In this document: one piece after another, positions 3,610 to 62,523 of the stretch
Position numbering within the stretch: position 1 is the first letter of the stretch
How the letters are laid out: each line of letters begins with the position of its first letter
DNA from: Candidatus Magasanikiibacteriota bacterium
GTDB taxonomy: Bacteria; Patescibacteriota; Patescibacteriia; Magasanikbacterales; GWA2-37-8
Direction of reading: 5' to 3'
Assembly: GCA_041665405.1 (NCBI GenBank)
Contig: JBAYIZ010000003.1
Location: 2,589 to 66,588, forward strand
Length of the DNA stretch: 64,000 nt
The notes under the pieces: generated by a model
Database searches by the model: none
Seen by the model: the letters and a program-made list of their open reading frames with translations, nothing else
Told to the model about the DNA's origin: nothing
Position numbers and translations under genes: made by a program

Positions 3610-5218
<1,609 letters not shown>

Positions 5219-5221
5219 ATT

Positions 5222-5653
5222 ATGCCTATTAAATTTAAAATCGTTACACCAGAAAAGGTCATTTACGAAAATGATCATATCGAACAGGTGACCGCTCCAA
5301 CCACGACCGGTGAGATTACGATTTTACCAAATCACACACCGCTGATCACTATCCTCAATCCGGGAGAACTGGTGTTCAAAGAAAAAGAAGAACTCCACCA
5401 CTTTGCCGTGGCCGGAGGATTTCTAGAAGTAAGAGAAAATAATGAGATTGTGATCCTAGCAGACAACGCCGAAAATGTAGATCAGATTGATATTGATCGC
5501 GCTCAACTAGCCAAAGAAAGAGCCATCGCGCAGATGTCTGAGATAAAGAATAGGGAAGATGTGGATTATGCTAGAATACAGGCGGTGATTGATAGAGAGA
5601 CCAATCGTATTCGGTTGGGGAATAAGTATAGAAGGTTGCCGAAAAGTGAATAA
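5222..5653 (+). CDS. atpC: F0F1 ATP synthase subunit epsilon
   Basis: 143 aa immediately after beta. The N-terminal beta-sandwich-like sequence (KIVTPEKVIYEN...ITILPNHTPLIT) is typical of epsilon. Confidence 0.85.
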   Translation: MPIKFKIVTPEKVIYENDHIEQVTAPTTTGEITILPNHTPLITILNPGELVFKEKEELHHFAVAGGFLEVRENNEIVILADNAENVDQIDIDRAQLAKERAIAQMSEIKNREDVDYARIQAVIDRETNRIRLGNKYRRLPKSE

Positions 5654-5661
5654 TGTATTTA

Positions 5662-5697
5662 AAAGCAATGGTTTTGGGCCATTGTTTTTTAAAGATA
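5662..5697 (+). terminator. rho-independent terminator after atpC
   Basis: CAATGGttttgggCCATTG followed by TTTTTT. Confidence 0.6.
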
Positions 5698-7004: not shown

Positions 7005-7667
7005 ATGAAACTCAAGGAGGTGCCGGCCGTGGATAGGCCTAGAGAAAAACTATCCAAATATGGTCCAGAAAAATTATCAAATAAGGAGTTGCTAGCGATT
7101 CTACTCGGTTCAGGAGTAAAAGGAACAAATGTAGTACAGCTGTCAAACAAAATACTCAAGAAGTTTAAAACAGAAAAACTTTCACAAGCTTCATTTGAAG
7201 ATTTAAAAAATACTTTTGGTTTGGGTCCAGCCAAAGCATGTTTGTTGGTTGCTTGTTTTGAACTCGGTCGTCGTTTTTTAAAAGACAAAAAACACAACTT
7301 AATATTATCTCCAAAGGATGTTTGGGAAAATCTCAAAGATATTCGCGATCACAAAAAAGAACATTTTGTGGTTTTTTATTTGGACACCAGAAACCAAGAG
7401 ATAAAAAGAGAAATAATATCCGTCGGCACACTCAATGCTAACCTCATACATCCACGCGAAGTATTTGAACCAGCCATCATGCACAGTGCAGCACAGCTAA
7501 TAGTAGCCCACAATCATCCATCGGGAAATCCAGAGCCATCGGAAGAAGATTTAGCCATAACAAAACGACTGGCAGAGGCGGGGAAAATACTTGGGATAGA
7601 TTTATTAGATCATATCATAATAGCCAAAGAAAGCTTTATCAGTTTGAACGACAGAGGCATTTTGTGA
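7005..7667 (+). CDS. radC: RadC-family JAB/MPN-domain protein (UPF0758)
   Basis: JAMM metalloprotease motif HNHPSGNPEPSEED plus the N-terminal helix-hairpin-helix-like region typical of RadC. A perfect palindrome ATCGCTTAtttAAGCGAT follows at ~7688. Confidence 0.85.
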   Translation: MKLKEVPAVDRPREKLSKYGPEKLSNKELLAILLGSGVKGTNVVQLSNKILKKFKTEKLSQASFEDLKNTFGLGPAKACLLVACFELGRRFLKDKKHNLILSPKDVWENLKDIRDHKKEHFVVFYLDTRNQEIKREIISVGTLNANLIHPREVFEPAIMHSAAQLIVAHNHPSGNPEPSEEDLAITKRLAEAGKILGIDLLDHIIIAKESFISLNDRGIL

Positions 7668-7753: not shown

Positions 7754-9205
7754 ATGTTTGAACAATCATTCAAAAACATTGATAATATCCTCCATACAGA
7801 TTCTGGTTGTGGAACAGAACTGGATTATGTAGAACAAACCTCTTGGGTTCTTTTTTTGAAATACCTAGATGATTTGGAAGAGACCAAAAGAACTGAATCG
7901 GCACTGGCTGGGAAGAAATACGCCTATATTTTGTCTCCCGAATATCGTTGGGACGCATGGGCGTGTCCAAAAAATAGCGAAGGCAAATTAGACCATAACA
8001 AAGCACTGGATGGTGACGATCTCTGTGGTTTTGTAAACAACAAACTTTTTCCATATCTTAAAAAATTTAAAGCCGAAGAACCAAATACCATTGAATACAA
8101 AATCGGTGAAATTTTTTCTGAATTGAAAAATAAAATCTCTAGCGGATATAAATTGCGAGAAATATTGAACATCGTGGATTTAATGCACTTTCGTTTGTAT
8201 GAAGAAAAACACGAACTTTCACATCTCTACGAAGCCAAAATAAAGAACATGGGCAACGCCGGACGCAATGGTGGCGAATACTACACGCCACGCCCACTCA
8301 TCAAAACAATTGTGAAAGTAGTCGATCCAAAGATTGGAGACACTGTTTATGACGGTGCCTGTGGTAGCGCTGGATTTTTGGTTGAAGCGTATAAATATCT
8401 AACAGAAAATCAATCCAAACTATCATCAAGCCAGATGGCAACCTTGCAAAACAAAACTTTTTACGGCAAAGAAATAAAATCTCTCGCCTATATCATCGGT
8501 ATCATGAATATGATCCTGCATGGTATTGAAGCACCAAATATAAAACACACCAATACACTTGCAGAAAACATCAATGATATCCAAGAAAAAGATCGTTACT
8601 CCGTAATTCTGGCAAATCCGCCTTTTGGCGCTGGTATCGGCCGTGAAATTCAACAAAACTTTCCAATCAAAACTGGTGAGACCGCTTTTCTTTTTCTCCA
8701 GCATTTTATTAAAATTTTAAAAGCTAGAGGCCGAGCAGGTATTGTTATCAAAAATACTTTTCTTTCCAATACGGATAACGCATCGGTTTCATTGCGTAAA
8801 TTACTTTTAGAAAATTGCAATCTACACACAGTATTAGATTTGCCAGGTGGTGCTTTTCAGGGTGCGGGAGTAAAAACGGTAGTGTTATTTTTTGAGAAGG
8901 GTACATCTACAAAAAAAGTTTGGTTTTATCAGCTCAATCTTGAGCGCAATCTTGGAAAAGGCAACCCATTGAACGAAGCAGATTTGGCCGAGTTTGTGGA
9001 ACTACAAAAGACCACGGCGAACAGCGATAATTCATGGAGTGTGGATGTTAAAGATATTGATCAGACTACTTTTGATTTGTCAGTAAAAAACCCAAATAAA
9101 AATAATGAGGTGATTTTAAGAGAGCCAAAAGATATTTTAGTAGAGATGAAGGACTTGGATATAAAAATTCAGAGTAGTGTAATTAGTATAAAAAAACTTC
9201 TTTAA
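7754..9205 (+). CDS. hsdM: type I restriction-modification system DNA methyltransferase subunit M
   Basis: N6-adenine MTase motifs: ILANPPFGAG (motif IV NPPF) and the SAM-binding ...VYDGACGSAGFLVEA.... The N-terminal HsdM_N-like region is present. Gene is followed in the same operon by hsdS and hsdR. Confidence 0.92.
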   Translation: MFEQSFKNIDNILHTDSGCGTELDYVEQTSWVLFLKYLDDLEETKRTESALAGKKYAYILSPEYRWDAWACPKNSEGKLDHNKALDGDDLCGFVNNKLFPYLKKFKAEEPNTIEYKIGEIFSELKNKISSGYKLREILNIVDLMHFRLYEEKHELSHLYEAKIKNMGNAGRNGGEYYTPRPLIKTIVKVVDPKIGDTVYDGACGSAGFLVEAYKYLTENQSKLSSSQMATLQNKTFYGKEIKSLAYIIGIMNMILHGIEAPNIKHTNTLAENINDIQEKDRYSVILANPPFGAGIGREIQQNFPIKTGETAFLFLQHFIKILKARGRAGIVIKNTFLSNTDNASVSLRKLLLENCNLHTVLDLPGGAFQGAGVKTVVLFFEKGTSTKKVWFYQLNLERNLGKGNPLNEADLAEFVELQKTTANSDNSWSVDVKDIDQTTFDLSVKNPNKNNEVILREPKDILVEMKDLDIKIQSSVISIKKLL

Positions 9206-9208
9206 GAT

Positions 9209-10504
9209 ATGGATTTTTCAAAGTTCACTTTTAATAAAAAATACACTCGGTATGATAAGCAATTTGAGTTGTTTTTTGATTTTGATCTTAAGGAAATTAC
9301 CGGACACAATAGAAAAACTTTTGATTACGGACTGAGTTTGCGTTACTTTCTTGAAAATAATCCCGGAAAACAAATTTTTTTAACCTTAACACAAGTATCT
9401 GACTTTTGTGAAGAATCAAATAAGTTAATTATAAACTTAAAGTCATATCAGGATTTTTGTAAGAAAATTAGCCAAAATGGCAAAGATAAAACTCAAGCAT
9501 TTCTTGCTCAAAAGTTGAAACATTACTCGGAAAATGAAAAGAAAGAAATTATTGCTAGTTCAACTGGAGAAGAAATAATAGAAAGGACGAGAGACTTTAC
9601 AGAAGATCAAAAAAAAGAGCTCGTTAAAGCAAATGCTACTGAAACGAATATATTTGAGGCAATAAAGACTCTAAGTGTAGAATCTCAAAGTAAAATATTT
9701 GAATTTTTACGATCTCAAAAAGGTTTAGATGTCTCTGGGAAAATCATTGAAACAACTGAAGAAGTTCTAAATATTTTAAATGGCCTTGAAAATATTGAGC
9801 CTGAAATTCTAAAGACGATTTTAAACAAATTAGATGAAAAAGAAAAAATTAACACTATTCTTGAAACATTGTCCAGGATAGAACTGAAGCATCTATCTGC
9901 CGCTAATAAGCAAAAGATTTATCATGCAGAGCTTAACAATTTAAAGCAACTTTTAGAATTGGAGGAGAATGGAAGTATAGTCGAGACAATAAAAAATTAT
10001 GGAAATTTAAGTTCATATATAGCAGGACAGCCTGAAAAAATATTCCAAAATTGGATTGAAAGAAATTTGTGGGTTTTTGGGATTGAGTATATAAAAAAAC
10101 ACGATGGAAGAAAGGTGGCTTTATTTAGTGAAGGGGATATACTAATGGAGTCAATGGATGGATTTTTAGACTTAATAGAGATTAAAAGACCCAAATACGG
10201 AATTTTTCAATATGACACCAATCACAATAGCTATTATTCATCACCAGATTTATCAAAAGTCATTGGACAGTGCTTGCTTTACTTGCAAAAAATGGATGAT
10301 CAAAAACTTGTTTTAGAAAAAGAGCACAAAGTGAAAATACTACGACCTAGAATAAAAATTATTGCAGGAAGAACAAACGAATTTAAGGACGAGCAATTTG
10401 AAGCTCTACGAATGTTAAATTCTAACCTAAACCACATCCAAATTATATCCTACGATTATCTTTTGAGTTGTGGAAAAAAAATTATTTCTTTATATGAGAA
10501 TTAA
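9209..10504 (+). CDS. hypothetical protein with C-terminal PD-(D/E)xK (RecB-like, Shedu/DUF4263-like) nuclease domain
   Basis: Starts 3 nt after the hsdM stop. The C-terminal ~150 aa carry ...SEGDILMESMDGFLDLIEIKRP... (D...D-hIEIK = D/ExK) followed by GQCLLY (QxxxY), the RecB-family motif set. The N-terminal 270 aa are helical and Lys/Glu-rich. The DUF4263/Shedu assignment is from memory and not verified. Confidence 0.45.
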   Translation: MDFSKFTFNKKYTRYDKQFELFFDFDLKEITGHNRKTFDYGLSLRYFLENNPGKQIFLTLTQVSDFCEESNKLIINLKSYQDFCKKISQNGKDKTQAFLAQKLKHYSENEKKEIIASSTGEEIIERTRDFTEDQKKELVKANATETNIFEAIKTLSVESQSKIFEFLRSQKGLDVSGKIIETTEEVLNILNGLENIEPEILKTILNKLDEKEKINTILETLSRIELKHLSAANKQKIYHAELNNLKQLLELEENGSIVETIKNYGNLSSYIAGQPEKIFQNWIERNLWVFGIEYIKKHDGRKVALFSEGDILMESMDGFLDLIEIKRPKYGIFQYDTNHNSYYSSPDLSKVIGQCLLYLQKMDDQKLVLEKEHKVKILRPRIKIIAGRTNEFKDEQFEALRMLNSNLNHIQIISYDYLLSCGKKIISLYEN

Positions 10505-10536: not shown

Positions 10537-11403
10537 ATGAGTAGAATTTTTGATTTTAATAAACGTTTTGGAAAAACTGTTGACCCTGAAGAAGTAAAAC
10601 ATGATTTTGTAAATAAAATTACTCATTATCTTATCGAACCTCTGGATGAGAAGGCAGGTTTACGTTATGGAGAGTACAGTAATAGTACTGAAATATTTAA
10701 TTTTGTGGCGATGGAATTTAATCAAAACCCGACAAATATTATATATTTACACAACAGAAATCATTTCTATTCTGATGATATTTACCGTCCATCTTTTAAG
10801 ATTTTTTCTGATGGCGTTTTTGAAAAAACCCTTATATTAGTAGAAATTTTTTATGATTATCTTTCAACGCACAGCATCCCTGGCACGGGTGAAAAGCAGT
10901 GGTCAGAAAATATAAATAAAATTGTCGCGTATGCTCTTAACCAGCCAGTATCGCTTGGCATCTCGTGGCGTGATGGAAAATTTTATCCTGAAGGAGCCGA
11001 AGAATTTGATGAAAAACTTATTTCGGATGTATTAAAATGGCTTGAACAAAAACCAAAAATTCAGGCTTTATACAAAAATGCACTTGATCAGTATTCTCAA
11101 TCATTAAGTGATAATATTAAGCGTAAAGATGTTATGAGTAATGCTTTTCAAGCTGTAGAACAACTTACCCAAGAATATCTGAAAAGCCCCAAACCGTCAT
11201 TTGATAATAATTTTAATTCATTAGTTGATAAACTTGTTATTGATAAAGAATGGAAAAAAATATTTAATTCTTACAAAGAATTAAGTAAAGAATTTGGGCG
11301 ACATGCAGGTAGTGGAGACAGCTTTATTCCTACACAAGAAGATACTGAAGCATTTTTATATTTGTCTGGTTTGATAATGAGATTAATACTTGAAAAAGTA
11401 TGA
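10537..11403 (+). CDS. hypothetical protein (no recognisable domain), embedded in the hsd operon
   Basis: 288-aa ORF with a good RBS (AAAGGA) 7 nt upstream. Its stop overlaps the hsdS start (ATGA), which implies translational coupling. Confidence 0.5.
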   Translation: MSRIFDFNKRFGKTVDPEEVKHDFVNKITHYLIEPLDEKAGLRYGEYSNSTEIFNFVAMEFNQNPTNIIYLHNRNHFYSDDIYRPSFKIFSDGVFEKTLILVEIFYDYLSTHSIPGTGEKQWSENINKIVAYALNQPVSLGISWRDGKFYPEGAEEFDEKLISDVLKWLEQKPKIQALYKNALDQYSQSLSDNIKRKDVMSNAFQAVEQLTQEYLKSPKPSFDNNFNSLVDKLVIDKEWKKIFNSYKELSKEFGRHAGSGDSFIPTQEDTEAFLYLSGLIMRLILEKV

Positions 11404-12620
11404 AAAATAATTGGCCAACAAAAAAACTTGGCGAAGTATGTGAATTTTTGAATGGATTATGGACTGGCAAAGAACCACCTTATATCAAAGTTGGTGTGAT
11501 TAGAAATACTAATTTTACAAAAGATGGGACACTAGACGATTCTAATATTGCTTACCTAAATGTTGAAAAAAAACAATTTGAAAAAAGAAAATTAATTTGC
11601 GGTGATGTCATCCTTGAAAAATCTGGCGGTGGACCAAAGCAACCTGTTGGGCGAGTTATAATATTTAATAAGGACAAAGGCAGTTTTTCATTTAGCAATT
11701 TTACTTCGGTAATAAGAATAAAGGATCCTAAAGAATTGAATTTTAATTTTCTCCATCGGTTTTTATTTTTTTCTTATATTTCAGGCATCACCGAAAAAAT
11801 GCAAAGTCATTCAACGGGAATTAGAAATCTTGATTCGAAATTATATAAAAATATCGATATACCTCTTCCATCACTCCATGAACAACACCACATCGTAAAA
11901 ATTTTAGATGAGGTTTTTGCGAAGGTGGCGAAGGCGAAAGAAGATGTTGAAAAAAATTTACAAAATTCCAAAGCACTTTTTGAATCATATTTACAGAGTG
12001 TTTTTACTAATCCAAGAAAGGATTGGGATGAGAAAAAATTAGGAGAAGTTTGCAATTTTGTAAGAGGACCATTTGGGGGGAGCTTAAGAAAAAGTATTTT
12101 TAAAAAAGAGGGTTACGTAGTTTATGAACAACAACATGCCATATATAATCAATTTTCAAAGGTAAGATATTTTATTGACGAAAATAAATTTAATGAAATG
12201 AAAAGATTTGAATTAAGGTCAGGTGATTTGATTATGAGTTGCTCTGGAACTATGGGTAAAATAGCAATTGCACCAGTGGGCATTAAAAAAGGAATTATTA
12301 ATCAAGCGTTATTAAAACTTAGTCCAAACAAAGATTTGATCAATGTGTTTTTGAAAAACTGGATGGAGAGCGCTGTTTTTCAAAATGATCTTAAAAAATA
12401 CACTAAAGGAGCTGCTATAAAAAATGTAGTATCCGTAAAGATTTTGAAAGGAATTAAAATATACATACCAAAATTGGCGGAACAAAAATTAATAATTTCC
12501 AAACTCGACGCCCTTTCCGCCGAGACCAAAAAACTAGAAGCAATTTATAATCAAAAATTAGCAAATTTAGAAGAATTAAAAAAGTCCGTATTAAAAAAGG
12601 CATTCGCAGGGGAGTTGTAA
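11400..12620 (+). CDS. hsdS: type I restriction-modification system specificity subunit S
   Basis: Two target-recognition-domain halves separated by conserved helical repeats (...LPSLHEQHHIVKILDEVF... and ...IPKLAEQKLIISKLDALS...), the classic HsdS architecture. Confidence 0.88.
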   Translation: MKNNWPTKKLGEVCEFLNGLWTGKEPPYIKVGVIRNTNFTKDGTLDDSNIAYLNVEKKQFEKRKLICGDVILEKSGGGPKQPVGRVIIFNKDKGSFSFSNFTSVIRIKDPKELNFNFLHRFLFFSYISGITEKMQSHSTGIRNLDSKLYKNIDIPLPSLHEQHHIVKILDEVFAKVAKAKEDVEKNLQNSKALFESYLQSVFTNPRKDWDEKKLGEVCNFVRGPFGGSLRKSIFKKEGYVVYEQQHAIYNQFSKVRYFIDENKFNEMKRFELRSGDLIMSCSGTMGKIAIAPVGIKKGIINQALLKLSPNKDLINVFLKNWMESAVFQNDLKKYTKGAAIKNVVSVKILKGIKIYIPKLAEQKLIISKLDALSAETKKLEAIYNQKLANLEELKKSVLKKAFAGEL

Positions 12621-12648: not shown

Positions 12649-13668
12649 ATGAAGTTTACTCGCACAAAAAAGGTGTTATTTACGAACAATAAAGGCGGAG
12701 TTGGCAAAACCACGCTGGCTTTTAATTGTGCCATGTCCTTTGCCAAACAAGGGTATAAAACTGTATTGGTTGATCTTGATCCTCAATGCAATCTTTCCCG
12801 ATTATCTTTAGGCGACAATCGATATGAAAAGACACTATTTTCATCACAGGAAAAAGATATTTATGATGTGTTGAAAGGCGTGATAGAGGGTGGGTCAGAT
12901 ATTGATTTAGGTGTGCCGTTTATTCCTGTATCCAACAGCAACAATAATCTTTTTTTAATGAAAGGTAGTGTTAATCTTTCGCTGTATGAAAATATATTAG
13001 TTACGGCCTACGGACAAGCCGCCGCTGGCCAGCAACTTGGCTATTTTCAAACTAGTGCGATTGATAGGTTCCTTCGAGAAAGAGGATTAAATGACGAGGT
13101 GGATATTTTTGTAATAGATACATCTCCTAGCTTGTCGCTACTCAATCAAATTATTTTCCTTGGTTCAGATTATTTTGTTGTTCCTATGATGCCCGATGCT
13201 TTTAGCGTGCAAGGTATTGAAAATCTTGGTAGCATATTTGAAAAATGGAAACAAAATTGGAAAGTAACCGGCAAAGCTCTTTCTGGTAATACAGAAAGTA
13301 AATTTGTGCTTTCAGGTGATGGTCTTTTTATTGGGTATATTGTGAATTCATATAATGTATATGGCAAACAGCCAATAAAAGATCACCGCCATTGGATTGA
13401 AGAAATTCCGGCTAAAGTTAAAAAATATCTTTCAGAAAAACATGGACGAAATGGGCTGGTTGAAAAAAGTTGGAAAAATCCGCTGGCTGAAATTCAGGAT
13501 TATGGTAGAATTCCTGCAAAGTGTCAAGAAATTGGGGTAGCGATATTTGATCTTGACCCAGCGTTGATTGATGAAATTCATCTTGGAACTATAGAAAACA
13601 TTGAAAAGTCAAAAGAGGAATTTGGAATATTGACGCAAAATATTTTAAAAATATTAATTGATTATTAA
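12649..13668 (+). CDS. ParA/MinD-family P-loop ATPase (deviant Walker A)
   Basis: KGGVGKTT deviant Walker A, DLDPQCN (A' motif), hhhhDTSPS Walker B. 339 aa with a ~90-aa C-terminal extension. Located between hsdS and hsdR. Confidence 0.75.
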   Translation: MKFTRTKKVLFTNNKGGVGKTTLAFNCAMSFAKQGYKTVLVDLDPQCNLSRLSLGDNRYEKTLFSSQEKDIYDVLKGVIEGGSDIDLGVPFIPVSNSNNNLFLMKGSVNLSLYENILVTAYGQAAAGQQLGYFQTSAIDRFLRERGLNDEVDIFVIDTSPSLSLLNQIIFLGSDYFVVPMMPDAFSVQGIENLGSIFEKWKQNWKVTGKALSGNTESKFVLSGDGLFIGYIVNSYNVYGKQPIKDHRHWIEEIPAKVKKYLSEKHGRNGLVEKSWKNPLAEIQDYGRIPAKCQEIGVAIFDLDPALIDEIHLGTIENIEKSKEEFGILTQNILKILIDY

Positions 13669-13715: not shown

Positions 13716-16070
13716 ATGTATATGCTTAACGAATCAGAAACACGAGCCGAATATATTGACCCGAAACTTAAAGCGAGTGGTTGGGGTGAAGTGGAGGGAT
13801 CCAAAGTCCTGCGTGAATTTCGTATTACCGACGGTAAAATTCAAGCTGGAGGAATGCGCGGTAAACCGGAAATTGCGGATTATATTTTGGTATATAAAAA
13901 TCGCAAAATTGGGGTGATTGAAGCTAAGGCGGAAAATTTAGCGGCGTCTGAGGGTGTAGGACAAGCCAAAGCGTACGCGCAAAAATTACAGATTGATTTT
14001 ACCTATGCCACCAACGGCAAAGATATTTATGAAATTTCCATGAAAAACGGACAAGAAGGAAATGTTGTAGATTTTCCAACTCCGGATGAATTGTGGGACA
14101 AAACTTTTTCTGACCAACCAGCCACAAACGAAGAATGGAAAGAAAAATTTGATGCGGTTTCGTCTGAAGGTGAAAAAGGTAAACGATATTATCAAGAGCT
14201 GGCTATCAACAATGCACTGGATGCGGTGGCACAAGAAAAGACACGAATACTAATAACTATGGCCACGGGGACAGGTAAGACTGCGGTGGCGGCTCAAATC
14301 GCTTGGAAACTATTTCAGACCCGCTGGAATTTAAAGAGAGATGGATCTCGCAGACCACGAATATTGTTTTTGGCGGATAGAAATATTTTGGCTGACCAAG
14401 CATTTGGAAATGATTTTTCAATTTTTCCAACCGATGCTATGGTGCGTATCAATCCTTTGGATATTCGAAAAAAGGGTGGTGTGCCAATGAGTGGTAGTGT
14501 TTATTTTACAATTTTTCAAACTTTTATGAGTGGAGCGGAAGGTGCTCCTTATTTTGGAGAATATCCACCAGATTTTTTTGATTTTATTATCATTGATGAG
14601 TGTCATCGTGGCGGTGCTAATGATGAAGGTAATTGGCGTGGTATTTTGGAATATTTTTCTCCTGCAGTCCAACTTGGTTTGACTGCGACACCAAAGCGAC
14701 AAGATAATGTGGATACATATAAATATTTTGGTGAACCAGTTTATGTTTATTCACTCAAAGAGGGTGTGAATGATGGCTTTTTGACTCCATTTAAAGTTAA
14801 ACGAGTCAAAACTACTCTTGATGATTATATTTACACTTCAGATGATCAAATTGTTGAAGGTGAAGTGGAAGAAGGAAAAATATATACTGAACCGGATTTT
14901 AATAAAATAATTGAGATCAAGGCCAGAGAGGCAAAAAGAGTGAGAGTGGTATTAGATGAAATAAATCAAAATGAAAAGACAATAATATTTTGCGCGACCC
15001 AGGACCACGCGGCGGCCGTGCGTGATTTGGTAAATCAAATGAAAGATAATAAGGATCCGAATTATTGTGTGAGAGTGACTGCCAATGACGGATTTCGTGG
15101 TGAACAATTTTTGCGTGAATTTCAAGATAATGAAAAAACTATACCGACTATTTTGACCACTTCACAAAAACTTTCTACTGGCGTAGACGCGCGCAATATT
15201 CGCAATATTGTTTTGATGAGACCGGTAAATTCAATGATTGAATTTAAACAAATTATCGGTCGTGGTACTCGACTTTTTGATGGTAAAGAATATTTTACGA
15301 TTTATGATTTTGTGGATGCGTACCATCACTTTGCCGATCCTGAATGGGATGGGGAACCAGCAAGTGAAACAACAGAAGATCAACCAACGGTTAAATATGA
15401 AACCACGAACAAGGATTTTGGCGGATCTATTTTGCGAGAAAAACCGACTGAAAAATATAAAAAATTAAAAATAAAATTACGTGATGGAAAAGAACGAGAA
15501 ATACAGCATATGATTTCAACTTCTTTTTGGAGTGCTGACGGCAAACCAGTTTCTGTTCAAGAATTTATGGACAATATGTTTGGTACCATGCCAGAATTTT
15601 TTAAGAGCGAAGAAGAACTCCGGAAAATTTGGTCAAACCCAACCACACGAAAAGTATTTTTAGAAAAAATTGCTGAGGCTGGTTATGGAAAAGACGAACT
15701 GGAAACATTACAAAAATTGATTGACGCTGAACAGAGTGATTTGTTTGATGTGCTTGCCTATGTATCCTTTGCTAGCAAGCCAATTAGCAGAACGGAGAGG
15801 GTTGACACTACTAAAAAAATTATTTTAAAAGGATTGGATGAAAAACAAACAGAATTTTTGCAATTTGTTTTAAATAAATATATTGATAATGGAGTAGAAG
15901 AGCTAGACGAAGAAAAATTGCCACAATTATTGAATTTAAAATATTACGCTATTGCAAATGCTGAACAGGAACTAGGCGATGTGTTTAAGATTAGAAATTT
16001 ATTTATTGATTTTCAAAAAGGTCTCTACAGTAATAAAATAAAAAATAATATTACTATTCAAAAAAATTAA
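13716..16070 (+). CDS. hsdR: type I restriction enzyme endonuclease/helicase subunit R (EcoEI-like, short form)
   Basis: N-terminal HSDR_N-like MLNESETRAEYIDPKLKASGWG. SF2 helicase motifs MATGTGKT (I), DECHRG (II), LGLTATP (III). The C-terminal region resembles the EcoEI_R_C domain. Confidence 0.88.
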   Translation: MYMLNESETRAEYIDPKLKASGWGEVEGSKVLREFRITDGKIQAGGMRGKPEIADYILVYKNRKIGVIEAKAENLAASEGVGQAKAYAQKLQIDFTYATNGKDIYEISMKNGQEGNVVDFPTPDELWDKTFSDQPATNEEWKEKFDAVSSEGEKGKRYYQELAINNALDAVAQEKTRILITMATGTGKTAVAAQIAWKLFQTRWNLKRDGSRRPRILFLADRNILADQAFGNDFSIFPTDAMVRINPLDIRKKGGVPMSGSVYFTIFQTFMSGAEGAPYFGEYPPDFFDFIIIDECHRGGANDEGNWRGILEYFSPAVQLGLTATPKRQDNVDTYKYFGEPVYVYSLKEGVNDGFLTPFKVKRVKTTLDDYIYTSDDQIVEGEVEEGKIYTEPDFNKIIEIKAREAKRVRVVLDEINQNEKTIIFCATQDHAAAVRDLVNQMKDNKDPNYCVRVTANDGFRGEQFLREFQDNEKTIPTILTTSQKLSTGVDARNIRNIVLMRPVNSMIEFKQIIGRGTRLFDGKEYFTIYDFVDAYHHFADPEWDGEPASETTEDQPTVKYETTNKDFGGSILREKPTEKYKKLKIKLRDGKEREIQHMISTSFWSADGKPVSVQEFMDNMFGTMPEFFKSEEELRKIWSNPTTRKVFLEKIAEAGYGKDELETLQKLIDAEQSDLFDVLAYVSFASKPISRTERVDTTKKIILKGLDEKQTEFLQFVLNKYIDNGVEELDEEKLPQLLNLKYYAIANAEQELGDVFKIRNLFIDFQKGLYSNKIKNNITIQKN

Positions 16071-16074
16071 TAAT

Positions 16075-16980
16075 ATGCCATTATTTAAAAATACCGATTC
16101 GAAACTATCCATAATAAAAGAAAGGCCGATTGATTTAGAGAGGGATATTCAACATCTCACTGAAATTAATTTAGAAAATGTTTTTAACCTAGAATTTGTT
16201 AGTTCTGAATTTTCTTTACACAATTTCAGACTTGACACACTAGCTTTTGACAAGGAGACAGGTTCTTTTGTAATAATAGAATTTAAAAGAGATAGAAGCT
16301 TCAGTGTTATTGATCAAGGGTATGCCTATTTATCTTTAATGTTAAACAACAAGTCAGATTTTATTTTGGAATACAATGAAAAAACAAAAAAGAATTTAAG
16401 ACGTGATGATGTTGACTGGTCACAGTCCAGAGTAATGTTTGTAGCAAATTCATTTACTTCATATCAAATGAATGCAATAAATTTTAAAGATCTACCCATT
16501 GAATTGTGGGAAGTTAAAGTTTATGAAAACAATGTAATATTATTTAATCAACTCTTATCACAAGACTCTACTGAATCAATAAAAACTATCACAAAAAACA
16601 AAGCTATCGATTCAGTGAGTAACGAAGTAAAAGTCTATACATTAGAAGACCATTTGAATGTGAACGATAAAATAAAAGAATTATTTTATGCGCTAAGAGA
16701 AAAAATACTAGCGCTTAGTGATACAATCGAAGAAAGACCTAAAAAAATGTACGTTGCATACAGAGTTAGAAATACATTTGCGTATGTTCATATACAACAA
16801 TCGCAAATCAAGATCCACTTAACTATTGATATGAAAAAACTGGTTGATCCAAAGGGTTTTGTTAGGGATGTAAATAATATTGGCCATTTTGGTGGTGGTG
16901 ATTTAGAGGTGATTTTAGACAAAATGGAAAATCTAAATTATGTTTTTGATTTAATTGAACAATCTTATAAAGCATTATAA
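16075..16980 (+). CDS. predicted PD-(D/E)xK (RecB-like) nuclease-domain protein
   Basis: Starts 4 nt after the hsdR stop. The N-terminus carries ...LDTLAFDKETGSFVIIEFKRD... (D..D..hIEFK) and DQGYAYL (QxxxY). The C-terminal ~130 aa are an unassigned domain. Confidence 0.4.
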   Translation: MPLFKNTDSKLSIIKERPIDLERDIQHLTEINLENVFNLEFVSSEFSLHNFRLDTLAFDKETGSFVIIEFKRDRSFSVIDQGYAYLSLMLNNKSDFILEYNEKTKKNLRRDDVDWSQSRVMFVANSFTSYQMNAINFKDLPIELWEVKVYENNVILFNQLLSQDSTESIKTITKNKAIDSVSNEVKVYTLEDHLNVNDKIKELFYALREKILALSDTIEERPKKMYVAYRVRNTFAYVHIQQSQIKIHLTIDMKKLVDPKGFVRDVNNIGHFGGGDLEVILDKMENLNYVFDLIEQSYKAL

Positions 16981-17765: not shown

Positions 17766-17823
17766 TGACATTTGTACCTGTATTTAATATGTTCACTTTA
17801 TCCACACACAATGTTTGATTTTT

Positions 17824-17846
17824 ATACACTAATAGTGTATACTAAA
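17824..17846 (+). promoter_or_regulatory. palindromic operator ATACACTA-a-TAGTGTAT overlapping a GTATACTAA motif, immediately upstream of the HTH-Panacea gene
   Basis: Read directly: 8-bp perfect arms ending 6 nt before the ATG at 17852. Confidence 0.55.
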
Positions 17847-17851
17847 CACAT

Positions 17852-18526
17852 ATGAATAAAAACTACCAAACCGCCATAAAACAACTACGATTAGAAAAAA
17901 ATATATCGCAATCTGACATTGCGCAAAAGATGGGTATTTCGCGCACCTCATATATTTCTTTTGAACAAGGTAAGCGCGACATCAGTCTATCCGAAGCGGG
18001 TGTTTTGGCCGATATATTTGGCATCTCCTTGGAAGATCTCAAAAATGGCGTAACACCGAATAATGAAAAATACAAACAAATGATTTTGGCTTTTTTGCGT
18101 TTGGATACCAAGATCACAAAGACCAAACTTGCTAAATTATTGTATTTTGCCGATTTTGGGTGGTTTTATTCTCACCTTGAAAGTATGAGCGGCATGTCAT
18201 ACCGTAAAATGGCGTATGGTCCAGTTTCAGATGCTTATTTTAGGATAGTTGACGATTTGTTTGACAACGGTCAAATTGATATTGAGCAAACCAAAGATGG
18301 GGCAATGTTAGTTTCTCAGACGCGCAGTGGCGCAAAAATTGATTTATCTGCTCTCAATACTGAAGAAAAAAAGTTAATATCCACTATTGAAAAAAAATGG
18401 AAAGGCAAAAAAACTTCTGAGATAGTTGATTTTACCCACAAGCAATTTCCATATTTATATGCTCAAGACAACGAAATTGTGTCATATGGTTTGTTTACCC
18501 AAGAAAATCCTGACGAAATTTTCTAA
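17852..18526 (+). CDS. XRE-family HTH fused to a Panacea (DUF4065/SocA-like) domain protein; putative antitoxin/regulator
   Basis: N-terminal HTH (QSDIAQKMGISRTSYISFEQGKRDISLSEAGVLADIFGISLEDL). The C-terminal KTKLAKLLYFADFGWFYSHLESMSGMSYRKMAYGPV matches the DUF4065 core (KLqKLLYfad...GPV). A palindromic operator lies immediately upstream. Confidence 0.7.
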   Translation: MNKNYQTAIKQLRLEKNISQSDIAQKMGISRTSYISFEQGKRDISLSEAGVLADIFGISLEDLKNGVTPNNEKYKQMILAFLRLDTKITKTKLAKLLYFADFGWFYSHLESMSGMSYRKMAYGPVSDAYFRIVDDLFDNGQIDIEQTKDGAMLVSQTRSGAKIDLSALNTEEKKLISTIEKKWKGKKTSEIVDFTHKQFPYLYAQDNEIVSYGLFTQENPDEIF

Positions 18527-18584
18527 TTATGATATACAAAAATGATAAGATATATTTTATATAATAATTTTAATTTAATTATAT

Positions 18585-19538
18585 ATGGAGGGGAAAAACA
18601 ATCAAATTATCATATACAATACTAAGGACGGCAAGACCAAGATTGAAGTTAAGCTAAATGACGAAACTGTATGGCTCACCCAGGCGCAAATGGCTGATTT
18701 GTTTCAGAAGAGCCAATCTACAATAAATGAACATATCCAAAATGTTTATGATGAGGGTGAATTGGAAAAAGAGCTAACCTTGCGTAAATTCGGAAATTCC
18801 GAAAATAGCATAGCTAAGCCAACCAACATTTATAATCTGGATGTGATCATCTCCGTTGGCTATCGTGTTAATTCCCTTCGAGGCACCCAATTCCGCATTT
18901 GGGCAACACAAAAATTGAAAGAATACATTATAAAAGGTTTTGTATTGGACGATGAGCGATTAGAAAGCGGACAGGTAGCCAAACCATACTTTCAGGAATT
19001 AGAAGAACGCATTCGCAAGATTCGCACTTCTGAAGCAAATTTCTATCAAAAGGTAAAAGATGTTTTTGCTTTAAGCGCGGATTACAATCCGAAGGCAGAT
19101 TATGCTCAGAAATTTTTCGCAGTAGTACAAAATAAATTTCACTTTGCTATTACCGGATTAACCGCAGCCGAAATTGTTAGCAGTCGCATAGACAGTGCCA
19201 AAGAAAATTTAGGGCTGACAAATTGGAAGGGTGAAATTATTACTCGTGATCAAGCGGAAGTCGCAAAAAATTATTTACAAGAACTAGAATTAAAAAGATT
19301 AAATTTACTGGTGGAACAATTTCTTTCTTTTGCTGAATTACAAAGTGTGGAACAGCGCGTCATGTATATGAATGATTGGATTATGAAACTGGATGGATTT
19401 TTGGTTTTGAATGATAAAGAAATTTTGGAAAATTCTGGCAGTGTGTCGCGCCATGACATGGAACAAAAGGTGCGCGAGGAATTAAAGAGATATAATCAGA
19501 AGGTTTTGGAAAATAAAAAACCCAATCAATTAGATTAG
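18585..19538 (+). CDS. RhuM-family protein (Virulence_RhuM, PF13310-like)
   Basis: N-terminus IIIYNTKDGKTKIEVKLNDETVWLTQAQMADLFQKSQSTINEHIQNVYDEGEL is the highly conserved RhuM-family opening. It lies 58 bp downstream of the Panacea gene on the same strand. Confidence 0.7.
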   Translation: MEGKNNQIIIYNTKDGKTKIEVKLNDETVWLTQAQMADLFQKSQSTINEHIQNVYDEGELEKELTLRKFGNSENSIAKPTNIYNLDVIISVGYRVNSLRGTQFRIWATQKLKEYIIKGFVLDDERLESGQVAKPYFQELEERIRKIRTSEANFYQKVKDVFALSADYNPKADYAQKFFAVVQNKFHFAITGLTAAEIVSSRIDSAKENLGLTNWKGEIITRDQAEVAKNYLQELELKRLNLLVEQFLSFAELQSVEQRVMYMNDWIMKLDGFLVLNDKEILENSGSVSRHDMEQKVREELKRYNQKVLENKKPNQLD

Positions 19539-19821
19539 GCATTTTATTGAAGTAGTGTCTTAGAAAATGGTTATCTGCGGCTTAAGTTCCAGGTACCCTG
19601 GAGGAACACCACGGCACTCTCTAAGTTATTATTACTAACTTCACTTATAATATAGACAATAAAGTGATCATTGTCAATATTTATCCACAGACTATGTCAA
19701 CTAACCGGAATTTCCGGATAACTGAATTAACTAAAATTTTACCTTAAAATATAGCTTGTTATATTCCATAATTATAAGAATATTTTGGCTAATATATAAC
19801 TAATAAAGCCACTCTAACAAT

Positions 19822-19860
19822 TAGTATACTCATGAGGTATACTAATTACAAGTATACTAA
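19822..19860 (+). promoter_or_regulatory. three direct copies of (A/G)GTATACTAATTA, each containing the GTATAC palindrome, immediately upstream of the DUF2779 gene
   Basis: ttAGTATACTcatgagGTATACTAATTAcaaGTATACTAATTatg read directly. TAGTATACTA is a perfect 10-bp palindrome. Confidence 0.55.
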
Positions 19861-19862
19861 TT

Positions 19863-21347
19863 ATGCACATCACCAAAACCGACTACCTCGAATACACCTT
19901 CTGCAAAAAGAACCTCTGGCTCAAAAAACACAAACCAGAGCTTTTTGATGGTGTCGAATTATCGGAATTTGAAAAGAAAATAATCGAAGAGGGGAACATG
20001 GCCGATGAATCAGCCCGCCATTTGTTTCCTGGTGGTGTGTTGGTAGATAGTTTTGGAGAGGATGCCGTGCATGACACCGCCCAATACCTGGAGAAAAAAA
20101 CAGCGGTGATATTTCAAGCGACCTTTGCGCAAGATGTTTTTTATATTCGCGCGGATATTTTGGTTTATGATCAATCCCAAGATGGCTATGAGCTGTATGA
20201 GGTGAAGGCCAGCAATGATGTCAAAAGAAAAGAGCCACATCATTATATCAACGACCTAGCTTTTCAAAAAAGTGTGATTGAAAAAAGTGGTTTGAAAATT
20301 ATTAAAACTGGCGTGATTCATTTGAACAGTGAATACCAAAGAGCGGGGGAAATTGATTATGAAAAATTATTTGTGATAGTGGATCTCAGTGATGAAGTGT
20401 TGGCCTCGCAAGAAAAAGTGCAAGCCCAGATGGAGGATATTAAAAAATATTTAAACATGCCGGAAGAAAAAGGGTGTGAATGTTTGTATCGCGGAAGAAA
20501 TGCTCAATGTACTACCTTTGCTTATTCCAACCCAGAGGTGCCAGAATATTCGGTGCATGATATCAATCGGATTGGGGCGAGTAAAAAAATACTTAATGAT
20601 TGGATAGATAGAGGGATATATGCGATTGAAGATATAGACAATCCACAGGTGCTCACTGGGGCCAAGAAGGCGCAATATGATGCGTGCTCGCTAGGCAAAC
20701 CGATGATTGATGAGGTGGCGATAAAAGAGGCGCTGGACAAATTGGTTTGGCCTTTGTATTTTTTTGATTATGAAGGATTTGTAAGTGCGATTCCGATGTT
20801 TGATGGTTTTGGGGCGTATGAACAAATTCCTTTTCAATATTCTCTGCATATTATGCAAGCGGATGGGAGTATAGAACATAGGGAATTTTTGATTACCGAT
20901 CCCAAAGGAGATCTCACCCGACCGCTGGTGGAACGGATGAAACAGGATATTGATCCGCGCGGGACGGTGATCGCGTGGTATAGCACTTATGAAAAACAAC
21001 GCAATTTGAAATTGGCACAGTTGCATCCGGACTATGCGAAATTTTTGGAGGAAATAAATGAGGGGATGTTTGATCTGATGACTATTTTTTCGGAAAATCT
21101 TTATGTGGATTCGGCTTTCAAGGGGAGCGCGAGTATCAAAAGGGTGTTGCCGGTGATTGTGCCGGAGCTAAGTTATAAAAATTTAAATATTTCCAAAGGG
21201 GATCAGGCGAGTGAGCGGTGGGAGCGGATGATTGGCAGTGATACGCCGGCGGAGGAGAAGAGACAGATTGAGAAGGATTTGTTGGAGTATTGTAAGATGG
21301 ATACTTGGGCGATGGTGAGGATATGGGAGAGGTTGAGGAAAATATAA
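19863..21347 (+). CDS. DUF2779-family protein with Cas4/RecB-like PD-(D/E)xK nuclease N-terminal domain
   Basis: N-terminal ITKTDYLEYTFCKKNLWLKKHKPELF matches the DUF2779 opening (lSKS.f..g.qC.k.lWl). ...ADILVYDQSQDGYELYEVK... carries a D...ELYEVK (ExK) motif. Three GTATACT repeats lie upstream. Confidence 0.55.
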   Translation: MHITKTDYLEYTFCKKNLWLKKHKPELFDGVELSEFEKKIIEEGNMADESARHLFPGGVLVDSFGEDAVHDTAQYLEKKTAVIFQATFAQDVFYIRADILVYDQSQDGYELYEVKASNDVKRKEPHHYINDLAFQKSVIEKSGLKIIKTGVIHLNSEYQRAGEIDYEKLFVIVDLSDEVLASQEKVQAQMEDIKKYLNMPEEKGCECLYRGRNAQCTTFAYSNPEVPEYSVHDINRIGASKKILNDWIDRGIYAIEDIDNPQVLTGAKKAQYDACSLGKPMIDEVAIKEALDKLVWPLYFFDYEGFVSAIPMFDGFGAYEQIPFQYSLHIMQADGSIEHREFLITDPKGDLTRPLVERMKQDIDPRGTVIAWYSTYEKQRNLKLAQLHPDYAKFLEEINEGMFDLMTIFSENLYVDSAFKGSASIKRVLPVIVPELSYKNLNISKGDQASERWERMIGSDTPAEEKRQIEKDLLEYCKMDTWAMVRIWERLRKI

Positions 21348-21413
21348 AATAATAATTTTAAACCCATCTAATTCGATGGGTTTAAAAAGGGGCCGAATTC
21401 GACCCCTTTAAAA

Positions 21414-21450
21414 CCGACCATTGAGTCGGTTTTTTATTTTTGGTATAATA
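21414..21450 (+). promoter_or_regulatory. repeated terminator-hairpin + extended -10 promoter module, copy 1 (CCGACcattgaGTCGG-T6-ATTTTTGGTATAATA)
   Basis: Read directly. Two further hairpins (AAACCCATCtaattcGATGGGTTT; AGGGGCCgaattcGACCCCTTT) precede it after the DUF2779 gene. Confidence 0.6.
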
Positions 21451-23477: not shown

Positions 23478-23538
23478 AGATCGCTCTCGTTTTTATCACA
23501 AATATATTATGATAAAAACGAGTTGGAGCGATCTTGAG
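23478..23538. repeat. long inverted repeat (~25-bp arms) forming a strong hairpin at the low-GC/high-GC junction
   Basis: TCAAGATCGCTCtCGTTTTTATCA...TGATAAAAACGAGttgGAGCGATCTTGA read directly. It lies directly 3' of the minus-strand cupin gene. Confidence 0.7.
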
Positions 23539-23570
23539 ACCGAACCTTCCCGTCCTCGATGAGGGTCGGC

Positions 23571-23936
23571 CTACAGATGGGTGGCCGGGAAGTTCTTCTG
23601 GTCCTCGAAGGTGACGGGCATGTAGCCCACCAAGATCATACCAGCCGAACAGGCGAGAACATGCTCCTCGCCAGGCTCGAACATGAACATGGTCGGAGCC
23701 ATGATGACATGGTCCCACACGCCTCCGTTCTCGGTCCACGTGCGCACCCTGCAGCGCCCCTTGACCAGGAAGAACCCCTCGACATGGGCATGCGAGTGGT
23801 TGCCCAACCTCACGCCTTTGGACTTGGTGATGAGTACCTTGCTCTCCACCGGCTTGGGGAAATAAGGTGGCGGACGAAAAGCCGTCAAATCCCGCCGGGA
23901 ATCACTGTGGCTGTCCGCCACGAGAAAAATCTGCAT
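23571..23936 (-). CDS. cupin-fold WxcM/FdtA-like (sugar 3,4-ketoisomerase-like) domain protein encoded on a ~60% GC segment
   Basis: 121 aa. ...LGNHSHAHVEGFFLVKGRCRV... parallels FdtA RGFHAHKKLEQVLVCLNGSCRV. The downstream ...PGEEHVLACSAGMILVGYMPVTFED parallels ...WHEM..FS.D.V.MVLAS.YYDE. GC content of 23540-23940 is far above the surrounding ~30%. The plus-frame ORF 23559..24692 is an antisense artefact of GC-rich DNA. Confidence 0.5.
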   Translation of the reverse strand: MQIFLVADSHSDSRRDLTAFRPPPYFPKPVESKVLITKSKGVRLGNHSHAHVEGFFLVKGRCRVRTWTENGGVWDHVIMAPTMFMFEPGEEHVLACSAGMILVGYMPVTFEDQKNFPATHL

Positions 23937-24028
23937 GATTTAGTTTGTCCTCCCATCTTTGGTCGCATGATTGCGACTATTCTTTTTATCAAAAAACTGG
24001 GTTTCTGTCAAGAATACGAAATAATCAA

Positions 24029-24066
24029 CCGACCATTGAGTCGGTTTTTTATTTTTGGTATAATAT
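24029..24066 (+). promoter_or_regulatory. repeated hairpin + extended -10 module, copy 3, upstream of the DUF3800 gene
   Basis: CCGACCATTGAGTCGGTTTTTTATTTTTGGTATAATA, identical to copy 1 over 36 nt. Confidence 0.6.
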
Positions 24067-24071
24067 ACCTT

Positions 24072-24692
24072 ATGAATATATATTTAGACGAATCATACAA
24101 TTTACAAAAATCTAAAGGTAAAATGTTTATTAGTATCAATGGTTTTTCTGTTCTAAATGCCGAACGGTTGAGAAAACGCTGGAAACATATTCGACAACCA
24201 TATACAAAACACAAGCGTCGTATTCATGCAACAGATCCTTTCTTTGAAGGTTTGCGAAGTAAAAGTATTCCACTACTAAAGGCAAATGATATAATGATAA
24301 TATCTGTATTTCAAATTGTACAGGAAATTCCTTACGATTATTTTGATAATAATAAAATGAATTTTGAAGTTGTTTATGCTGAATTACTAAAACAACTATT
24401 AAAAGAACTTTCGCTTAACGAATACAAACAAACTAAAATTATAATCGACTCTCGCAAACACAAAGGGGGGATTGCTGGAGCAACCAATTTTCAACAAGAA
24501 ATTAATAATTTTTTGAAAAATAAATTTCCAGGTACTGTATGTTCATTTTTACCTACACCTTCATATTTAGATGTACTTGTTGAATTGGCTGATTTCGTTT
24601 CTAATACTTTTTATAAAAACTACCAAAAAGGAGATGACACTATATTTAAACAGCTCGGATATCGACTTATACAAATAAAAAACCCGCTATAA
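24072..24692 (+). CDS. DUF3800-family protein
   Basis: Starts MNIYLDESYNL..., matching the DUF3800 N-terminal IYIDESG-type motif. The ATG sits 7 nt after a repeated TGGTATAATA promoter module. 206 aa. Confidence 0.5.
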   Translation: MNIYLDESYNLQKSKGKMFISINGFSVLNAERLRKRWKHIRQPYTKHKRRIHATDPFFEGLRSKSIPLLKANDIMIISVFQIVQEIPYDYFDNNKMNFEVVYAELLKQLLKELSLNEYKQTKIIIDSRKHKGGIAGATNFQQEINNFLKNKFPGTVCSFLPTPSYLDVLVELADFVSNTFYKNYQKGDDTIFKQLGYRLIQIKNPL

Positions 24693-24855
24693 AAGCGGAT
24701 TTAGTAAGAGCCTTTTGGGAGTGTCTCTGCTTCATCGGGATGTTCTTGATGAGAACGCCCTCCACAAAGCTTTACCCTAAGGACTTATCTTCTGAAGATA
24801 TTATCACACAAAAAGGTTGTTTTGTCAATGTGTGTGGATAACTAACATGCAATAA

Positions 24856-61781: not shown

Positions 61782-61812
61782 TTTTAATTTATAAAACACG
61801 GTATTATATAAT
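61782..61812. terminator. perfect palindromic bidirectional terminator between convergent genes
   Basis: AAAACACGGTATTATATAATACCGTGTTTT is a perfect inverted repeat, flanked by A/T runs on both sides. Confidence 0.7.
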
Positions 61813-62523
61813 ACCGTGTTTTATAAATATTATTTGTTTGGATTTTTCGTAATCTTCTACTTTCTTTATTTTCCAGGGCAAACGGTAAAACCAGCTCGGT
61901 ATCCAACTGCTTATCCCCTTTCTTCCTCGTACAATCTTTTTGTATAAAACCTGTGGGACAAACACACCGGTTTTATTTTGTTTTAACATTGTCAACCACA
62001 AATCCCAATCTTGAAAACGTTTTAACGACTCGTCGAATGGTACAAAATCTCTGGCACGGATCAAAGAAGTAACGTCAATATAATTTAATTTTTTTAAGAG
62101 AGCTGAATCGAAAATATGACTCTTCATTTTTTTCCATCCGAATCTGAACTGACTATAAGCATAACTCGCCTGCTGGTTATCATCTAGCGCCTTTTTCATC
62201 GTTTCTATCATCCCTGAATAACAGACTGTATCAGCATCTACAAATATAACGTATTCTCCATGTGCTTCCCTGAAACCTCGATTACGCGCAGTGGGTGCAC
62301 CGGAATTTATCTGATCAATCACCAATGGATTTAAAGCTTTAATATCAGGATATTTTTGCAAAATATATTCTAATGATGCTTGAAAATTATCCGTACTACC
62401 ATCATTAACTATAATCAACTCAAGGGGGAAAATTTTATCCTGTATAGATATCGTTTTCAAACATACTTCAAGTGTATGAGCATGATTGTAAACTGGGATT
62501 ATTATACTAACTAAATTTTTCAT
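61804..62523 (-). CDS. family 2 glycosyltransferase
   Basis: IIIPVYN...DGSTDN... and DXD-like VDADT motifs. Confidence 0.8.
   Translation of the reverse strand: MKNLVSIIIPVYNHAHTLEVCLKTISIQDKIFPLELIIVNDGSTDNFQASLEYILQKYPDIKALNPLVIDQINSGAPTARNRGFREAHGEYVIFVDADTVCYSGMIETMKKALDDNQQASYAYSQFRFGWKKMKSHIFDSALLKKLNYIDVTSLIRARDFVPFDESLKRFQDWDLWLTMLKQNKTGVFVPQVLYKKIVRGRKGISSWIPSWFYRLPWKIKKVEDYEKSKQIIFIKHGII

Follow-up and report, generated by a model that had tools for sequence, protein, structure and literature searches.

An antitoxin-type Panacea gene next to a RhuM gene in a Patescibacteria defence island: probable replacement of a RelE-like toxin gene by a stand-alone defence gene

Do an antitoxin-type gene and the defence gene situated directly downstream of it form a functional pair, or is their adjacency accidental? 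This question is raised by two neighbouring genes in a 64-kb window, i.e., the whole stretch of 64,000 nucleotides that was analysed (contig JBAYIZ010000003.1 of a Candidatus Magasanikiibacteriota bacterium, positions 2,589 to 66,588), to which all coordinates refer unless a related locus is named. The first gene, panA (17852-18526, plus strand), is intact and encodes a protein of 224 aa with an XRE-type helix-turn-helix (HTH) and a Panacea/DUF4065 domain. The second gene, rhuM (18585-19538, plus strand), encodes a RhuM-family protein of 317 aa, which is assigned to PADLOC PDC-S05 and is a candidate single-gene antiphage protein. An earlier note on this region had described both genes as a putative toxin-antitoxin (TA) or abortive-infection (Abi) pair with its own operator. 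The gene order, the common strand, both family assignments and the 58-bp gap were confirmed by Pfam and PADLOC searches. The Pfam domain HTH_3 was found at residues 9-63 of PanA (E 1.5e-13) and SocA_Panacea (PF13274) at residues 93-198 (E 6.6e-13); the latter match scores 50 bits versus a gathering cut-off of 25.7, which places the upstream gene in an antitoxin-type family, as had been proposed. A protein identical to PanA is annotated in a Candidatus Magasanikbacteria metagenome-assembled genome. The partnership itself found no support. Instead, panA is probably an orphan: its RelE-like toxin gene, missing at this locus, would have given way to a stand-alone defence gene of the RhuM family, and the adjacency of both genes would most likely be an accident of cassette shuffling and not a TA system.

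The conserved partner of the Panacea gene

PanA homologues are numerous (1728), occur in Patescibacteria and are mostly exactly 224 aa long, with the Panacea half better conserved than the HTH. Genomic loci of 80 PanA relatives were retrieved (numbered L001 etc.), and 61 orthologous loci, all from other Patescibacteria, were evaluable. In 58 of these 61 loci, a conserved ORF of approximately 128-133 aa is located on the same strand directly downstream of panA. This ORF, termed panT, begins 2-3 nt past the stop codon of the Panacea gene or overlaps panA by 4-14 nt; examples are L001 1448-1834, L003 6678-7064, and L172 5678-6064. Of the 58 copies, 56 are intact and those of L002 and L004 are fragmented, while L041, L053, and L055 have none; these five loci represent toxin decay elsewhere in the family. 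The same panA-panT pair was observed in three further relatives identified by an exact-protein look-up (85% and 81% identity). Locus L041 is another case of an orphan PanA adjoining a defence or toxin gene: a convergent gene (L041 6685-7566, minus strand) is situated 3' of its panA, and the encoded product contains a HPFxDGNGRxGR Fic motif, recognised by eye.

The panT family comprises 2057 members, similar in number to the PanA family, all of them unnamed. Conserved motifs include CKTEFK, SGNRCI, and LLVYxKxD. No sequence-level match was obtained in Pfam, NCBIfam or PDB profile searches, and only the fold search was informative. With a structure model of PanT (AlphaFold2, 24 homologues, mean pLDDT 89.5) as query, the top Foldseek matches in the PDB were almost all RelE, HigB2, YoeB, and YafQ toxins (best match 1wmi_A, E 8.6e-4, probability 1.0), with TM-scores of up to 0.69 (target-normalised) at sequence identities of 10-17%. 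The orthologous PanT proteins are thus predicted to adopt a RelE-like alpha/beta fold. Presumably, PanT is a translation-dependent mRNA interferase which is translationally coupled to panA, and we infer a RelE-like activity also for the partner that was lost from the window. Because the model matches RelE-type toxins, the canonical system of this family would consist of an HTH-PanA antitoxin and a RelE-fold PanT toxin, which falls within the range of PanAT systems already described (PMC8832971). The approximately 2000 RelE-fold PanT proteins are a candidate for an uncatalogued PanT class.

Known TA systems resemble the locus to different degrees. The N-terminal HTH followed by a Panacea domain in the window PanA is shared with described PanAT systems (PMC8832971, PMC10440598), among which 343 PanAs with an HTH were reported (PMC8832971). 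The orthologous loci additionally share the bicistronic operon in which the antitoxin gene precedes the toxin gene at a short gap or with an overlap, and the PanT classes known so far include mRNA-interferase-type toxins. In contrast to these systems, the window retains four codons of the toxin gene only and lacks the two-gene module, and the approximately 128-aa partner of the orthologues is devoid of Pfam and NCBIfam matches. Similarities to HigBA and RelBE are given by the predicted fold of the lost partner, which is close to RelE, HigB2, and YoeB, by the XRE-type HTH of the antitoxin, as in HigA, and by a palindromic putative operator in the promoter. Here, the Panacea domain takes the place of the neutralising region of HigA or RelB, and the likeness of the toxins is one of predicted fold only, at the low identities mentioned above. 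SocAB of Caulobacter, which contains the founding Panacea antitoxin, has the SocA_Panacea domain in common with the window, but the weak match of PanA to the NCBIfam SocA model (E 0.0032) scores 17 bits versus an equivalog cut-off of 190, and no SocB-like gene was found at the window locus. SocA works as a ClpXP adaptor.

A RhuM gene adjoins the Panacea gene in none of the 61 evaluable orthologous loci; in three of the 80 loci one occurs within 6 kb, never adjacent. The reverse survey covered 83 non-redundant RhuM loci, 60 of which were evaluable because their upstream sequence extends over 750 nt or more; again, none of the 60 has a Panacea gene immediately 5' of RhuM. Among the RhuM loci, L099 alone has a Panacea-like gene in its vicinity. 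This candidate was rejected as a pair since the Panacea-like gene is situated 1.4 kb upstream with another gene in between, and it has a 118-aa partner ORF of its own, which by eye appears RelE-like and resembles the partner in L064. Locus L099 is a case of co-residence in an island and not of pairing. The survey of public genomes that had been suggested for the Panacea-RhuM adjacency hence revealed no enrichment, a result named in advance, together with a lack of toxicity and rescue, as speaking against the pair, and for this reason the partnership is regarded as unsupported. The panA-rhuM arrangement was not found to recur in unrelated genomes, as would be expected of a type II TA pair, and neither the 58-nt gap nor the 317-aa size of the presumed toxin corresponds to a tight operon with a small toxin.

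These counts bear on the proposal that RhuM is a toxin directly neutralised by the Panacea domain, i.e., that the locus is a true TA or Abi pair which arose by a fresh partner swap of a PanAT module. Panacea antitoxins do have dozens of toxin domains unrelated to each other as partners (Kurata et al. 2022, PMC8832971), RhuM was proposed as a toxin domain on contextual grounds (Anantharaman et al. 2013, PMC3710099), and the locus shows the antitoxin-first order on one strand behind an operator-bearing promoter. On the other hand, the adjacency is unconserved from both sides, this PanA subfamily has a different cognate partner, the RelE-fold protein, whose first four codons are still present in the window, and the 58-nt gap differs from the spacing of 2-3 nt or overlap of 4-14 nt typical of the cognate genes. 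No link between Panacea/DUF4065 and RhuM was found in the literature searched. In the main text and part of the supplements of the two Panacea/NetFlax surveys (PMC8832971, PMC10440598), RhuM is not mentioned, the sole occurrence of the string "rhum" being "Arthrobacter_humicola"; as far as these parts of the two sources go, the lack of RhuM among the reported Panacea partners is consistent with panA-rhuM not being a recurring system.

The probably replaced segment and the RhuM gene in its place

In the window, only the beginning of panT is left. DNA alignments show that codons 1-4 (ATG ATA TAC AAA, encoding MIYK; 18529-18540) are homologous to those of the relatives. Beyond 18540, seven unrelated codons follow up to a stop codon at 18562-18564, so that the remnant (18529-18564, plus strand) is a dead ORF of 11 codons, which is contained in the gap between panA and rhuM. 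Another copy of panT within the window was detected neither by tblastn nor by a profile hidden Markov model of the partner family. The left breakpoint at 18540 is identical in comparisons with three relatives, L001 (92% aa identity), L171 (85%), and L172 (81%). In case of L172, both edges of the segment could be mapped. Positions 5053-5689 of this locus align with 17904-18540 of the window, and homology returns at 19542, 3 nt past the rhuM stop codon, where L172 7161-7309 aligns with 19542-19689 of the window and extends through a DUF3800-V RNA. The segment between both edges (18541-19541, plus strand, 1001 nt) consists of a 44-nt AT-rich leader, the RhuM ORF, and 3 nt. Its counterpart in L172 comprises 1471 nt with the rest of panT, a gene for a DUF498 protein and a gene for a DUF3800 protein.

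The right edge is marked by the DUF3800-V RNA (Rfam RF02964; 19548-19643, minus strand), which is convergent with rhuM and was identified by a full-length covariance model match (1-96, E 1.1e-14, 70.2 bits versus a gathering score of 37.4). It is preceded by a near-consensus promoter-like site, TTGACA-17-TATATT (19677-19649), and followed by a terminator-like hairpin (19540-19520) that overlaps the rhuM stop codon. In L172 and L053, this RNA is located convergent to a DUF3800 gene. In the window, its neighbour is rhuM, the closest DUF3800 gene being found at a distance of 4 kb (23559-24692). The RNA class was described without an assigned function (PMC5737381).

From these alignments, window 18541-19541 appears to be a clean cassette replacement which left panA and the DUF3800-V RNA behind as orphans, and the adjacency of panA and rhuM would be due to this mapped event. 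The ancestral locus would have been a Patescibacteria panAT module in a defence island centred on a type I restriction-modification (R-M) system beside radC, the module being, as suggested by the relatives, an autoregulated HTH-Panacea antitoxin with a toxin of approximately 128 aa and RelE/HigB-like fold. Recombination would then have exchanged the region from codon 5 of panT through the end of the downstream DUF3800 gene for the 1-kb RhuM cassette, with the two orphans as the outcome.

A comparison with L001 revealed further shared sequence of a different kind. Short intergenic segments and gene fragments of L001 1-700 correspond to window 19701-19862, 21209-21417, and 24052-24803, although in a different order, which in L001 reads DUF2779 3' end, hairpin, DUF3800 fragments, an 80-nt segment, panA-panT, and the spacer preceding the NYN gene. 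This suggests that cassettes of the island were repeatedly shuffled between common flanking sequences.

The incoming gene is a typical member of its family. The RhuM protein of the window matches Virulence_RhuM (PF13310) with E 2.8e-95 (318.8 bits versus a cut-off of 33.7) and the PADLOC PDC-S05 model PDLC04853 with E 7.8e-128 (424 bits, residues 1-310), and it is well conserved, the best 120 matches listed being 74-90% identical. As stated in the earlier note, members of this family recur in defence islands, which applies to the window itself and to relatives located in hsdM-hsdS-hsdR operons. The closest relative (P0122, 90% identity) is part of an hsdM-rhuM-DUF4917-hsdS-hsdR operon that is closely preceded by RadC and a ribosomal-protein cluster, a hotspot of the type also seen in the window. 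Of the two relatives ranking next, one stands alone downstream of dnaK, and the other has a Pyr_excise gene at its 3' side. The genes located upstream of 49 RhuM genes form a heterogeneous set with N6_Mtase, Methylase_S, AAA_21, CRISPR-associated and other genes. The window gene and its relatives agree with PDC-S05 as a single-gene unit of defence islands which often resides inside type I R-M operons. The full-length match, the defence island near a type I R-M system and the closest relative in an hsdM-hsdS operon are features shared with this system; as a difference, rhuM of the window is located outside the R-M operon, 2.5 kb downstream of hsdR, with an orphan antitoxin gene ahead of it. The protein is not fused to a Fic/Doc domain, nor was one detected in it, and it gave no Fic match in Pfam; an assignment to the Fic/Doc toxins, which are recognised by a Fic domain or the motif HxFx(D/E)GNGRxxR, found no support. 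The protein had no sequence match in the PDB and no significant fold match, the latter search being based on a poor AlphaFold2 model (pLDDT 52).

In E. coli B, the plating of T7 and T5 was lowered approximately 1000-fold, and that of T4 approximately 10-fold, by one PDC-S05 (RhuM-domain) gene alone, as reported in a preprint (bioRxiv 10.1101/2024.09.26.614923). From the contexts elsewhere and this one published single-gene test we infer that RhuM would be a self-sufficient defence-island gene which needs no antitoxin. The widespread occurrence of RhuM genes without an antitoxin-like neighbour and the activity of one of them as a single gene in E. coli also argue against direct neutralisation of RhuM by PanA, which in view of the two surveys and the panT remnant we consider very improbable.

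The panA promoter and the fate of the probable orphan gene

Upstream of panA, a sigma-70-type promoter was predicted with the -35 box TTGATT (17815-17820), a 17-nt spacer, and the -10 box TATACT (17838-17843). The distance between the -10 box and the start codon is 8 nt, and because of this short distance the panA mRNA is probably leaderless or nearly so. A perfect dyad, TATACACTA-a-TAGTGTATA (17823-17841, centre 17832), covers the spacer and reaches 4 nt into the -10 box. The palindrome reported in the earlier note is thus real and perfect, but its arms comprise 9 bp rather than 8, and it ends 10 nt (11 nt if 8-bp arms are assumed) ahead of the ATG instead of 6 nt. A count of perfect inverted repeats (arms of 9 bp or more, loops no longer than 3 nt) gave eight entries in the window versus 2.5 +/- 1.7 in first-order Markov simulations, and the chance that such a palindrome falls inside a given promoter region of approximately 80 nt was estimated at about 0.3%. 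While the mere existence of this dyad in 64 kb is unremarkable, it gains meaning from its placement inside a promoter that is conserved across the orthologues.

The 85-nt upstream regions of 39 orthologous genes, when aligned, revealed the common layout ATGTCAA..TTATCaACAC..ATGTTTGAC-TTTTTACACA..TATACT, in which ATGTTTGAC includes the -35 box and TATACT is situated about 8-10 nt ahead of the ATG. The left half of the dyad, TTACAC, directly 3' of the -35 box, is kept in at least 70% of the orthologous promoters, which would seem to be more than promoter function alone would require. Perfect dyads of 6-9 bp are present at the equivalent position in L028, L036, L050, and L054. A second copy of the dyad was not detected near rhuM or elsewhere in the window (no meaningful match within 3 mismatches). 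From its position and conservation, the dyad is a plausible operator for the PanA HTH, through which PanA may repress its own gene; the TA-type autoregulation that had been suggested is supported insofar as the dyad occupies the spacer and -10 region of a promoter conserved in the 39 orthologous loci, its operator role being putative. PanA would probably still bind this site and repress panA in the window.

A side observation concerns the 9-mer GTATACTAA, which occurs four times in the window versus 0.33 expected (none of 100 shuffles reached four copies). Three copies are located in the 40 nt directly 5' of the DUF2779 start (19821-19860), two of them arranged as TTAGTATAC-N7-GTATACTAA, and the fourth at 17837-17845 inside the panA operator and -10 box. 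They could represent sites of a shared regulator or merely stacked -10-like boxes. That GTATACTAA regulates these cassettes in general was rejected, since the motif adjoins panA in no other lineage except L001.

Several observations weigh against the reading of panA as an orphan next to an independent rhuM. A promoter and terminator scan detected no terminator-like site between panA and rhuM, due to which rhuM is likely read through from the panA promoter; co-expression is thus probable and coupling of the two genes possible. PanA keeps all 85 invariant columns of the family alignment A1, and in comparison with L001 the dN/dS of panA is 0.047 at a dS close to 1, indicating purifying selection. 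Judged against five outgroups, the lineage-private conservative changes number three in the window PanA and two in its partnered relative L001. Relaxed selection was tested for and none was detected, and a decaying pseudogene is not favoured; it follows that either panT was lost recently or PanA still serves some purpose. Furthermore, as the visible portion of the genome is the 64-kb window, a copy of panT may be present elsewhere in the genome. The independence of RhuM from an antitoxin is drawn from genomic context and one preprint, and the structure model of RhuM is poor. The arrangement was also found in three other samples, at 99.95-100% DNA identity. Since this identity indicates the same strain, these samples are not independent evidence.

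Mainly because the orphan panA is not visibly decaying, a little weight is left on direct neutralisation and rather more on a regulatory capture of the downstream gene. According to the latter, the HTH of PanA would repress the shared promoter via the dyad, and the Panacea domain as a sensor would lift this repression upon infection, resulting in inducible RhuM without any neutralisation at the protein level, comparable to the control of defence genes by C proteins or other HTH regulators. Such control has the XRE HTH encoded first, a dyad on the regulator's own promoter and a defence gene downstream on the same, here presumed, transcript in common with the window, and the locus may now work like this arrangement. 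It differs in the additional Panacea domain of the window regulator, its origin as a TA antitoxin, and the lack of conservation of the arrangement. The continuity of the two genes over 58 nt, the overlap of the dyad with the -10 box, and the intact state of panA under purifying selection despite the loss of its toxin fit a capture. Ernits et al. 2023 (PMC10440598) favour a sensory role of Panacea in multidomain PanAs, and the HTH of PanA matches PADLOC "Control_protein" models with E 1.5e-10. Against it stand the occurrence of the arrangement in one strain only, the lack of such a regulator directly upstream in all 60 RhuM loci with their heterogeneous upstream neighbours, and the fact that the purifying selection is not assignable to the period after the replacement. 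A weak promoter-like site at 18529-18556 could drive rhuM independently, but matches of this kind are at background frequency in AT-rich DNA (14 found versus 10.2 expected), and it was hence not used as evidence. Altogether, we regard a regulatory capture as unlikely, although clearly less so than a neutralising pair. A panAT module caught in the middle of a partner swap, in which PanA was kept to gate RhuM either via dyad and infection-sensing Panacea domain or by direct binding, appears somewhat more doubtful than the capture.

We therefore prefer replacement of the RelE-like toxin gene by a stand-alone RhuM gene as the probable history of the locus. Read-through of rhuM from the panA promoter would then be a passive result of this replacement and no evidence for a co-evolved pair.

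Island setting and significance

Both genes are located at the end of a defence island which is centred on a type I R-M system near radC. Upstream genes encode RadC (7005-7667), HsdM (7754-9205), a Shedu protein with SduA_C domain (9209-10504), HsdS (11400-12620), a ParA-like ATPase (12649-13668), HsdR (13716-16070), and a DUF5655/PDC-S18 protein (16075-16980), followed by genes for MsrB and a pyrimidine-dimer glycosylase ahead of panA. The Shedu gene and the gene of the ParA-like ATPase (AAA_31) are interleaved among hsdM, hsdS, and hsdR of the R-M operon, and the DUF5655/PDC-S18 gene is situated directly 3' of hsdR. Beyond rhuM, a DUF2779/Cas4-like protein is encoded at 19863-21347, followed by an NYN-domain protein and a DUF3800 protein.

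A GC-rich patch at 23500-23800 (57% GC versus 36% in the window and 28-29% on both flanks at a distance of a few hundred bases) coincides in part with the N-terminal 170 codons of an annotated 377-aa DUF3800 ORF, the DUF3800 domain of which begins at residue 173 only. An ORF of 121 aa on the minus strand (23571-23936) overlaps the patch as well. The patch may be foreign DNA or due to a mis-called start. By far the longest perfect palindrome of the window, ATTTATAAAACACGGTATTATATAATACCGTGTTTTATAAAT (61787-61828, 42 nt, 21-bp arms without loop), is located between convergent ORFs ending at 61776 (plus strand) and 61804 (minus strand) and may act as a bidirectional terminator.

A TA pair of Panacea and RhuM would have offered a handle on the mechanism of the uncharacterised RhuM proteins, but the evidence does not support such a pair. 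What the locus appears to provide instead is a cleanly delimited cassette replacement, by which an antitoxin became an orphan in a defence island of Patescibacteria. It illustrates that adjacency in defence islands needs a conservation test before it is read as partnership. If the partner swap were true after all, the locus would be a snapshot of the "hyperpromiscuous" Panacea domain in the course of acquiring effectors, and PanA would be the first known regulator of a RhuM protein. An intact and selected orphan panA in front of rhuM represents a test case for the recruitment of orphan antitoxins as regulators of neighbouring defence genes.

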